Sequence record: PV340561
Reading direction: 5' to 3' (one strand)
DNA from: Escherichia phage PhiR41_1
Length of the DNA stretch: 64,000 bases
Shown here: piece by piece, positions 23,094-25,458 of the stretch
How the letters are laid out: the number at the start of each line of letters is the position of its first letter
Numbering within the stretch: the first letter of the stretch is position 1
Made by a program: the position numbers and the translations under genes
The notes under the pieces: model-generated
Seen by the model: the letters and a program-made list of their open reading frames with translations, nothing else
Told to the model about the DNA's origin: nothing
The model's database searches: none

Positions 23094-24887
23094 ATGTGGT
23101 ACAGGGAAGGTACAATAAATCTCACTAAAGGAAATAAAACTGTAGTGGGAACAGGCACAGCCTGGGGAGTGACGACGAACGGCGTCCTTCCAGGTATGAT
23201 ATTGATTGGCCCCGATAATAAGTTATATGAAATAAAATCAATCGAGAGTGACACTTCGTTAACTCTTGTTGAAGCCTACGGTGGCAGCACCCAAACAAAT
23301 GTTCCGTGCAGAATAATTACGACCTATGAAGGTGATTTGACCCAATTTAGTGCTCGTTTTACTGCGCTTATGTCTCGCATGTCAGCCGATTCAAAAATGA
23401 TGCGTAGTTGGCTGACTGCTGTGGATAAAATAACAATTGAGCGTGAAGATGGCACGGAATTAACCGTAAAATCCCTTACGCAGATCGTTAATGAGCACAA
23501 TGAGAACCTAGAATGGTATAAAGAAAATACTCCCATAATTAACACCGCTGCACAAAAAGCTAAAGAGGCGGCAGCGAGCGCAACAGCGGCCAAAAAATCA
23601 GAAACTAACTCAAAAGCGAGTGAGACAGCTTCAAAGACCAGCGAAACTAATGCGAAAAATAGCGAGGTAGCTGCAAAATCGAGTCAGAGTGCTGCCGCCA
23701 ACTCCGCTACCGCAGCAAAAAACAGCCAGGCGGCGGCAGCCGAAAGCGAGAGTGCCGCAGCTGGTTCTGCGACTTCAGCTGCCGGATCAGCAACTGCCGC
23801 GGCTAACAGCCAGAAAGCTGCGAAGACGAGTGAAACTAACGCAAAGTCCAGCCAGACGGCAGCGAAGACCAGCGAAACGAATGCCAAAGCCAGTGAAACT
23901 GCGGCGAAAAACAGTCAGGATGCAGCAGCCCAAAGCGAGAGTGCCGCAGCCGGTTCTGCAAGCGCGGCGGCTGCTTCTGCCACTGCATCAGCCAACAGTC
24001 AAAAAGCAGCAAAAACCAGTGAAGCCAACGCAAAGGTGAGCGAAACAGCGGCGGCGAACTCGGCGAAAGCATCGGCAGCAAGCCAGACGGCAGCAAAAGC
24101 AAGTGAAGATGCTGCCAGAGAATACGCAAACCAGACAGCAGAGCCGTACAGATATGTTTTACAGCCGCTGCCGGATGTGTGGATACCCTTTAATGATTCG
24201 CTGGATATGATTACGGGCTATTCTCCGGGTTATAAAAAAGTGAAGATTGGTGATAATGTGGTTCAGGTTGCCAGTGATAAACAGGTTAATTTCAGTCGCG
24301 CATCAACGGCAACATATATCAACAAATCTGGCGAACTGAAAACGGCGGAAATTAATGAGCCACGATTTGAAAAAGAAGGTTTATTGATTGAAGGTCAGCG
24401 AACCAACTACATGTTGAATTCAGCAACTCCAGCTTCTTGGGGTAAATCTGCAAATATGAATGTCGCTGAGGTTGGAACTGATAGTTTTGGTTTTACTTAT
24501 GGAAAGTTTGTTTGTAATGAATCATTAATTGGGCAAAGTACAACCCTTAATATGGCAGTAGTTTCAACCTCGGGGGCTGTCGATGTATCAGGCGATAATA
24601 AGTGTGTGACGACATCGTGCAGATTTAAAACGGATTTGGAACTCCTGTTAAGGATCAGGTTTGAAGCCTTCGATGGCAGCGCTTCATCTAATCTTGGATA
24701 TGCCATTGTTAATACGCGGTCTTTATTGGTTGAAATCACCGGTGTAGCTGCCGACAGGCTCACCGCACGAGTTAACAAAGATGAAGCTACGGGCTGGATT
24801 TTTGTAGAGGCAACGATTCAAGCAAGTAAAGAAACTTACATAACCTCTGCAATACAATACGCACCAAAAAAAAGGTGGTGTCGTTGA
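23094..24887 (+). CDS. side tail fibre protein
   Basis: 597 aa; long Ala/Ser/Thr/Lys low-complexity repeat array (SETNAK, AAKNSQ units) of the kind I recall in lambda Stf; position after the J-like gene. Confidence 0.7.
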   Translation: MWYREGTINLTKGNKTVVGTGTAWGVTTNGVLPGMILIGPDNKLYEIKSIESDTSLTLVEAYGGSTQTNVPCRIITTYEGDLTQFSARFTALMSRMSADSKMMRSWLTAVDKITIEREDGTELTVKSLTQIVNEHNENLEWYKENTPIINTAAQKAKEAAASATAAKKSETNSKASETASKTSETNAKNSEVAAKSSQSAAANSATAAKNSQAAAAESESAAAGSATSAAGSATAAANSQKAAKTSETNAKSSQTAAKTSETNAKASETAAKNSQDAAAQSESAAAGSASAAAASATASANSQKAAKTSEANAKVSETAAANSAKASAASQTAAKASEDAAREYANQTAEPYRYVLQPLPDVWIPFNDSLDMITGYSPGYKKVKIGDNVVQVASDKQVNFSRASTATYINKSGELKTAEINEPRFEKEGLLIEGQRTNYMLNSATPASWGKSANMNVAEVGTDSFGFTYGKFVCNESLIGQSTTLNMAVVSTSGAVDVSGDNKCVTTSCRFKTDLELLLRIRFEAFDGSASSNLGYAIVNTRSLLVEITGVAADRLTARVNKDEATGWIFVEATIQASKETYITSAIQYAPKKRWCR

Positions 24888-24990
24888 ATCTGGTGACTAT
24901 ATTTATCTGGCCACCCCTCAGGTTGAGGATGGTTCGTGTGTATCATCTTTTATTATATCAGGAACGACGGCGGCGACGCGCGCAAGCGAT

Positions 24991-25458
24991 ATGGTTACAG
25001 TTCCGATTAAGAATAATCTTTATAATCTTCCTTTTACGGTTCTTTGTGAGGTACATAAGAACTGGTATAAAACGCCAAATGCAGCGCCGCGTGTTTTTGA
25101 TACCGGCGGTCATCAAACCGGAGCGGGGATCGTAATGGGGTTTGGTTCATCAGGTGGGTACGACGGTTTTCCGTATTGCGATATAGGTGGTTCAGACCGA
25201 CGAATAAATGAAAATGCCGGGCTGGAAAAAATGCTTATTGGTATGCGGGTAAAGTCCGAACGGTCCACATGTGTAGTCAGTAACGGTAAGTTAAGCAGCG
25301 AAACTAAAACCAAATGGGAATATATCCGGAGTACAGCAACCATTCGCATTGGTGGACAAACTACAGCAGGATTACGCCATTTATTTGGGCATGTGAGGAA
25401 TTTTCGTCTCTGGCATAAAGAGCTAACAGATGCGCAGCTTGGGGAGGTTGTGGAGTGA
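24991..25458 (+). CDS. LamG/concanavalin-like domain protein; possibly the frameshifted C-terminal receptor-binding domain of the side tail fibre
   Basis: Ends with FGHVRNFRLWHKELTDAQL, a typical LamG-domain terminal motif; its frame is open from 24844, overlapping the tail fibre 3' end across an A8 tract. Confidence 0.5.
   Translation: MVTVPIKNNLYNLPFTVLCEVHKNWYKTPNAAPRVFDTGGHQTGAGIVMGFGSSGGYDGFPYCDIGGSDRRINENAGLEKMLIGMRVKSERSTCVVSNGKLSSETKTKWEYIRSTATIRIGGQTTAGLRHLFGHVRNFRLWHKELTDAQLGEVVE

Follow-up and report, generated by a model that had tools for sequence, protein, structure and literature searches.

The side tail fibre gene (stf) of Escherichia phage PhiR41_1 lies in the 64,000-nucleotide (nt) stretch of sequence record PV340561 that we analysed, the whole of which we call the window. 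There it is divided between two open reading frames (ORFs) by a run of eight adenines (A8). Sequence comparisons indicate that both ORFs are a single side tail fibre gene of 787 codons, and that the A8 run is derived from a run of seven (A7) and is private to the window sequence. Our preferred reading, held at about even confidence, is that the eighth A is a real, recent and lineage-specific insertion and not part of a programmed event; that it is instead an assembly indel is nearly as likely. For annotation, the locus calls for one frameshifted stf (a pseudogene, or 'frameshift; possible sequencing error'), not for a fibre plus a laminin G (LamG)-like protein and not for a recoding site.

The sequence from 24860 to 24890 reads CGCACC AAAAAAAA GGTGGTGTCGTTGAAT, with the A8 run at 24866-24873. 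This run is the sole homopolymer of at least eight nucleotides across the window, which also holds 15 A7 and 37 A6 runs. The first ORF, a truncated stf of 597 amino acids (aa; 23094-24887, plus strand, as are all features below unless stated), crosses the tract as GCA CCA AAA AAA AGG TGG TGT CGT TGA and ends prematurely at that TGA (24885-24887), four codons past the run; run and stop both lie where an initial annotation, made from the letters of the window, had placed them. That annotation had also described the +1 frame as open from 24844 for about 200 residues. We found it open from there, after a stop at 24841-24843, to a stop at 25456-25458, a total of 204 codons ending in ...LFGHVRNFRLWHKELTDAQLGEVVE; its first start codon is ATG 24991, giving an ORF of 155 aa. 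Counted from the tract, the distal part of stf that now lies in the +1 frame (24874-25458) consists of 194 codons and the native stop. Removing one A in silico fused the two ORFs, as had been proposed, into a product of 787 aa with no stop, in which the junction peptide ...AIQYAPKKGGVVESGDYIYLATPQVEDGSCVSSFIISGTTAATR replaces the truncated C-terminus ...AIQYAPKKRWCR.

The single-gene reading is based on this stop-free fusion and on two profile matches that span both ORFs. The family phrog_1419 ('tail protein', 793 positions) is covered by the pair, with positions 16-597 matched by the first ORF (E = 1e-234) and positions 593-793 of 793 by the +1 segment (E = 2.5e-94). Likewise, the NCBIfam family NF048003 is split at the tract, where residues 431-574 of the truncated ORF correspond to profile positions 1-130 and residues 16-47 of the +1 segment to positions 149-181. 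The distal segment is moreover collinear with a 787-aa protein (P0076) encoded on the metagenome scaffold L066, from which it differs at six codons, with no stops and no further indels. Across annotated relatives, stf is always uninterrupted at this site, in ORFs of 686-708 aa.

Comparison of the tract in relatives revealed a consistent in-frame state. It is A7 in the prophages KE40, MS8345 and APEC 16-1068 and in the contigs L066 and L067, AAAATCT in PhiR40_1 and IAI39, and AAAAGCT in VogelGryff. The closest lambdoid alleles read CACC-AAAAAAA-GGTGG (P-K-K-G) and the AAAATCT variant encodes P-K-S-G; the A8 tract corresponds to the ancestral A7 (CCA AAA AAA GGT, P K K G) with one A inserted. 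This additional A is the sole indel in a 1976-nt alignment to the KE40 prophage (98.8% identity). A 101-nt probe centred on the tract matched at 135 places in 104 complete E. coli genomes, the best match reaching 99.0% over 100 nt, which is the A7 state; a 100% match was found in none of the 104. We also used a gapped pattern scan with 5 to 10 free bases between fixed flanks, which retrieved 21 IMG/VR and 32 metagenome contigs. Most of these (47/53) carried A7 and the remaining six AAAATCT, with neither A8 nor any other tract length among the 53. The gapped scan of GTDB species-representative genomes gave no match, and an exact-protein look-up of the 597-aa and 155-aa ORFs found neither on record in another assembly.

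Two contigs recovered by protein search are especially informative, as they carry the same chimeric gene in its intact form. One is L066, a 108,091-bp scaffold collinear with the window, whose P0076 is 99% identical and has A7; the other is the E. coli contig L067, with an intact gene (P0075) and again A7. The tract is the only indel within stf between the window and either contig, and the window's stf minus one A has the same length as that of L066 (2364 nt), with 18 codons differing. Because L066 and L067 hold this chimeric gene with A7, the mosaic fibre is older than the frameshift.

An off-frame tract of the opposite kind was found in one place, the short-read Logan contig L012 (ERR10498325 contig 701, 1070-1076), where the equivalent run is A6 and the gene is frameshifted in the opposite direction. 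More than 130 loci with A7 thus compare with a single A8, that of the window, and a single A6, that of L012. The A6 of L012 shows that bases are now and then gained or lost at the A7 run, be it biologically or through sequencing; the off-frame states are singletons. The 192-aa homologue P0016 begins in a wrong frame and regains the correct one around a T-run equivalent to window positions 25085-25089. We also considered the 264-member cluster of the 154-aa protein P0009 as a possible set of many frameshifted copies and rejected it, as among the 15 members listed (40 of the 264 were read) all but the representative were 'partial' entries at contig ends. That representative, which lies on L012, is the only true frameshift among the listed members, and it is the A6 case.

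Structural predictions place the lesion within a folded domain. The first of two distal jelly-roll domains, of the NF048003 'GTA head spike fiber' type (24384-24984), is split by the frameshift before its last beta-strand. In the intact homologue P0003, NF048003 matches in one piece (profile positions 12-181) at 37.0 bits against a curated cut-off of 36, whereas the two frameshift-split halves in the window, scored separately, reach 19.8 and 25.6 bits. An AlphaFold model of P0003 (350 aa; predicted local distance difference test, pLDDT, 71.7) consists of two beta-rich domains joined by a low-confidence linker, with the first domain mostly at 85-94, and the site equivalent to the A-tract falls in that first domain, after strand 144-152 and before strand 164-174. 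In terms of this model, the frameshift is predicted to remove the last strand of the first jelly roll and all that lies downstream. The initial annotation had taken the run as the boundary between the fibre and a separate domain; both the NF048003 match and the structure model instead put it inside the penultimate beta-sandwich domain. Foldseek searches with the two-domain model of P0003 retrieved the laminin alpha2 LG4-5 tandem, a neurexin LNS domain, the botulinum neurotoxin (BoNT) receptor-binding domain, CBM40 and a Pseudomonas phage tail fibre, with low template modelling (TM) scores (0.17-0.35) that reflect an arbitrary domain orientation, and a single-domain model was more informative.

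That single domain is the terminal one, a concanavalin A (ConA)/LamG-like domain and presumed receptor-binding tip (24991-25455) that coincides with the 155-aa ATG ORF. Its AlphaFold model is of moderate confidence (pLDDT 71.7), and Foldseek aligned it to the LNS domain of neurexin-1beta (2r1d), the LG domain of SHBG (1lhv), galectins, the pentraxin C-reactive protein and BoNT Hc-N, with probability 1.0 and TM scores of 0.45-0.61. By sequence, the Pfam family PF13385 (Laminin_G_3) remained below its gathering threshold (15.1 bits versus 27.6) and matched profile positions 98-149 only. Two more distant homologues, P0018 and P0021, have a precomputed PF13385 match. The LamG-like assignment made initially therefore stands at the level of the fold, as given by Foldseek on the model, and does not stand at the level of the Pfam sequence profile. 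Within the loops of this domain, positions 25084-25227 differ from the KE40 prophage allele at nine codons within about 140 nt. Eight of these changes are nonsynonymous and eight are GC-to-AT transitions; they include DTG to NIS and DIG to NIS, and homologues vary at these positions too. From its sequence, this stretch looks like a patch of hypervariable receptor contacts or else a short tract of gene conversion.

Under the preferred reading, replication slippage in the ancestral A7, which encodes two lysines, would have added one A, so that the last 194 codons ahead of the native stop fell out of frame and a TGA came into frame four codons on. The main product would be the 597-aa protein, without the last strand of the first jelly roll and without the terminal LamG-like receptor-binding domain. 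Such a protein would probably be unable to fold or trimerise at its tip, resulting in virions without functional side fibres, as in laboratory lambda; infection via the central J-like tip should remain possible. Ribosomes would also terminate 570 nt before the GTGA overlap with the next gene, orf92. Any translational coupling to orf92 would be lost, although orf92 retains its own Shine-Dalgarno (SD) sequence. We infer that the additional A belongs to the DNA and did not arise in assembly, that the truncated product is non-functional, that a small share of ribosomes (by a +1 slip at AAA-AGG-U) or of transcripts (by loss of one A) would restore the wild-type protein, and that reversion from A8 to A7 would be easy. 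A real mutation would probably leave this phage-plasmid without functional side fibres; adsorption would then be slower and the host range could be narrower, which is relevant to users of this phage-plasmid and to those who predict its hosts.

There is precedent for such a lesion in lambda. Laboratory lambda (PaPa) differs from Ur-lambda by an stf frameshift that blocks side fibre synthesis and assembly, and side fibres speed lambda adsorption 10- to 30-fold while being dispensable for plaque formation (PMC12617516). In the PaPa orf401/orf314 arrangement (Hendrix and Duda, 1992, as cited in PMC12617516), a single-base frameshift likewise splits stf downstream of J and leaves the distal receptor-binding part intact but out of frame. 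The expected outcome, by analogy, would also be shared, namely loss of the side fibres with infectivity kept through the central tip. PhiR41_1 differs from PaPa in being an SSU5-like phage-plasmid with a non-lambda fibre N-terminus and in that its lesion is known from an assembled sequence alone. The distal domains differ as well, being tandem ConA/LamG-like jelly rolls here and a gp37-like tip in lambda Stf. Of 19 spontaneous stf mutants selected from Stf+ lambda in a structured environment, 15 carried frameshifts; the indels, with a single exception, fell in short homonucleotide runs, and one position was hit repeatedly (Gallet, Shao and Wang, 2009, PMC2762979). Such recurrent positions resemble the occurrence of A6 and A8 at one A7 tract, although those mutants arose under defined laboratory selection. 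Uninterrupted counterparts of the gene include the lateral tail fiber of VogelGryff (Bas25; QXV85444.1) and a lambdoid prophage Stf (WP_322882391.1), which share 82-99% nucleotide identity over the distal half and the same two small downstream genes; they differ in having unbroken ORFs, of the lengths given above for annotated relatives, and other N-termini. Unless it is an error, the A8 allele adds one more case to a type of lesion already known, in a gene of a known type; its closest counterparts are the PaPa frameshift and the Gallet et al. mutants. If it is a mutation, it forms a natural addition to the PaPa pattern of side tail fibre loss by homopolymer frameshift.

The same observations may also be due to an assembly indel, as the initial annotation had also proposed, or to a base-calling one, in which case the true sequence would be A7, stf an intact gene of 787 codons and the tract biologically inert. 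We regard this as a serious possibility, somewhat short of an even chance. It would explain why A8 is seen just once in roughly 190 related loci, why it falls at the longest homopolymer in the window and why nothing downstream has been disturbed, neither the native stop nor the start of orf92 that overlaps it. Error-like homopolymer frameshifts also occur in other public copies, as in P0016 and in the A6 contig L012 from a short-read assembly. Against an error, the rest of the window shows no ORF frameshift of the homopolymer type over about 50 kb of alignment at 97-99% identity, and lambda most often loses stf spontaneously through genuine frameshifts in homonucleotide runs (PMC2762979). More generally, we found no further frame-breaking ORF indel over the approximately 50 kb aligned to Escherichia phage CMS-2020a or the 22 kb aligned to L066. 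The other indels relative to these two lie outside called ORFs, are multiples of three, or leave the ORF open, being compensated or sitting in divergent patches of poor alignment. Given this absence of other ORF-breaking indels, the assembly does not appear to be generally error-prone.

Three points nonetheless weigh against a real mutation. The distal part of the gene shows no secondary decay, as would be expected of a very recent mutation no less than of an artefact. The truncated products of the A8 allele (597 aa and 155 aa) occur in no other assembly, leaving the allele without independent confirmation. Finally, the run is the longest homopolymer in the window, and we consider a base-calling or polishing error there quite conceivable, if a little less so than the mutation itself.

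The initial annotation had suggested a phase-variable or slippage-controlled tail fibre. An evolved switch of this kind appears improbable in light of the comparison above, both as a contingency locus that varies in phase at the DNA level and as a programmed slip of the polymerase or the ribosome by which the proportions of short fibre and fibre-LamG fusion would be set. It is true that A-runs slip and that A6, A7 and A8 are all present at this site somewhere in public data, and that bacterial transcription slippage is documented on runs of nine A or T (PMC5009743). The A8 allele furthermore carries an AAA-AGG-U sequence that resembles two +1 frameshift sites: CCC-AGG-C, at which a +1 insertion in E. 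coli rpoB is suppressed at 5% (Huseby et al., 2020, PMC7022156), and the CUU-AGG-C of Ty1, which shifts at 20% (PMC7022156). However, the in-frame A7 is fixed in essentially all relatives, and some of them have AAAATCT or AAAAGCT with the ORF kept; conservation thus extends neither to the run nor to a shifted frame. An off-frame length occurs once in each direction among the roughly 190 loci. The 100 nt downstream of the tract fold no better than shuffled sequences (z = +0.25), and the upstream sequence ACAATACGCACC contains no SD-like motif that could act as a stimulatory element. The zero-frame product would end mid-domain, unlike programmed cases in which both products are functional, and the runs with documented efficient transcription slippage in bacteria are longer than A8. 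With the tract of the relatives compared, A8 a singleton and no RNA structure downstream, the suggestion of a controlled fibre found no support. A -1 slip on A_AAA_AAA was considered as a route of rescue and rejected, as it enters the third frame (ORF 24875-25135, a junk sequence) and not the LamG frame.

A more modest form of slippage would require no evolved control. The insertion itself creates the AAA-AGG-U sequence (24870-24876), in which a slippery Lys codon precedes a rare Arg codon, and this is a candidate for low-level +1 slippage; AGG occurs at 2.4 per 1000 codons in the long ORFs of the window. While the rare AGG occupies the A site, the P-site tRNA-Lys could re-pair perfectly one base downstream, and a +1 slip would yield the exact A7 protein (...APKKGGVV...). 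Alternatively, RNA polymerase could drop one A, although A8 is marginal for transcription slippage. As in the rpoB case, a 1-nt insertion exposes a slippery P-site codon before a rare AGG and a +1 slip restores the frame; here the P-site codon is AAA (tRNA-Lys) rather than CCC, and a slip within the A-run would restore the exact wild-type sequence. 'Savior indels' in homopolymers, for example in the G7 run of the herpes simplex virus (HSV) thymidine kinase, offer a further parallel (PMC5009743). By analogy with these cases, low-level rescue giving a few percent of wild-type fibre is plausible. That the additional A is real and the allele leaky in this way, with a few percent of exact 787-aa fibre made by a +1 slip at AGG or by the polymerase dropping an A, is on the whole unlikely. 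If it were so, virions would carry sparse side fibres and adsorb poorly, a state from which the return to A7 is easy; the insertion would then be a de novo 'savior indel', adjusting adsorption without eliminating it. The AAA-AGG-U context would in any case be a cheap test case for intrinsic +1 suppression.

The position of ATG 24991 almost exactly at the start of the terminal domain raises yet another alternative, in which the gene gives two proteins, a short fibre and a free 155-aa LamG-like adhesin translated from that ATG. We consider this highly improbable. No SD sequence precedes ATG 24991 in gacgcgcgcaagcgat, in contrast to stf (TAGGAG) and orf92 (GGGGAGG), and scans found no promoter-like or terminator-like site between 24887 and 24991. 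The methionine is an internal fibre residue in all relatives (D-M-V-T-V-P), and nothing would attach a free domain to the virion. Short homologues in the databases are almost all contig-end partials or frameshift products, and none of those listed is clearly free-standing (P0010, P0013 and P0071 being left out of this count). Separate expression of the LamG domain from its own ATG, which the initial annotation had entertained, is thus unlikely.

Returning to the frameshifted stf of the preferred reading, its genomic setting is that of a phage-plasmid with a mosaic fibre. The window aligns to CMS-2020a at 97-99% identity over most of its length, with phage Cyrano and Salmonella phage SSU5 more distant, and on the basis of these alignments we assign it, by sequence, to the SSU5-like phage-plasmids of E. 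coli. Its tail genes follow a lambda-like order, with the tape measure gene (11263-15846) followed by 15889-16224, 16274-17005, 16971-17795, 17783-18376, the J-like gene 18387-23000 and then stf from 23094 onwards. The gene thus adjoins a J-like tail tip gene of 1537 aa in a tape measure-M-L-K-I-J module, and Pfam labels on the collinear sibling L066 agree with this order. Pfam searches found no family on the 597-aa ORF; the prophage tail fibre N-terminal family PF08400, which lambdoid homologues carry, was not detected in it.

The fibre N-terminus is instead of the SSU5 type and, as far as 23581, has 88% nucleotide identity to CMS-2020a. This phage is the closest relative by backbone and has no counterpart of 23581-26274. 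The region 24009-25984, by contrast, is a module common to lambdoid E. coli prophages, with 98.1-98.8% identity to the stf region of those with the A7 allele. The matching prophages are KE40, MS8345, IAI39 and APEC 16-1068, and the match includes two small genes after stf. By these alignments the fibre is a mosaic of an SSU5-type attachment end, Ala/Ser/Lys-rich repeats (23581-24009) and a lambdoid distal module, and the same mosaic is found in the sibling phage-plasmid contigs L066 and L067.

The first of the two small genes, orf92 (phrog_1361; 25455-25733), has a GTG start that overlaps the native stf stop (GTGA) and the upstream GGGGAGG already mentioned; the intact 4-nt stf/orf92 overlap is annotated in PhiR40_1, VogelGryff, KE40, MS8345 and IAI39. 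The second, orf94 (phrog_1443; 25743-26027), is the last gene of the imported lambdoid fibre module and is conserved after stf in lambdoid prophages and in L066. On the minus strand, opposite the distal stf and orf92, runs a 264-aa ORF with an ATG start (25113-25907); it is annotated in no relative and is probably spurious. Directly after the fibre module follows a lysis cassette, in which 26518-27237 matches the PHROG 'endolysin' family phrog_873, with weaker matches to tail injection transglycosylases, and overlapping Rz/Rz1-like spanin genes lie at 27239-27490 and 27333-27641. Beyond this cassette are ParA-like and DnaB-like genes.

Two further features were observed away from the tract. 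A palindrome of about 55 nt, CCTGCTTCTGTATATA-(AT-rich spacer)-TATATACAGAAGCAGG, occurs in two copies outside called ORFs (1584-1638 and 31117-31171). Its arms give five matches against 0.06 expected by chance, and small indels between the window and CMS-2020a lie in and around both copies. These palindromes may be regulatory hairpins or terminators of the phage-plasmid. In the IAI39 prophage (L007, 4388-6200), a reverse-transcriptase gene and a SLATT-domain gene, both absent from the window, lie directly downstream of the homologous stf module and are probably a defence system, retron-like or abortive-infection-like, in a prophage cargo position.

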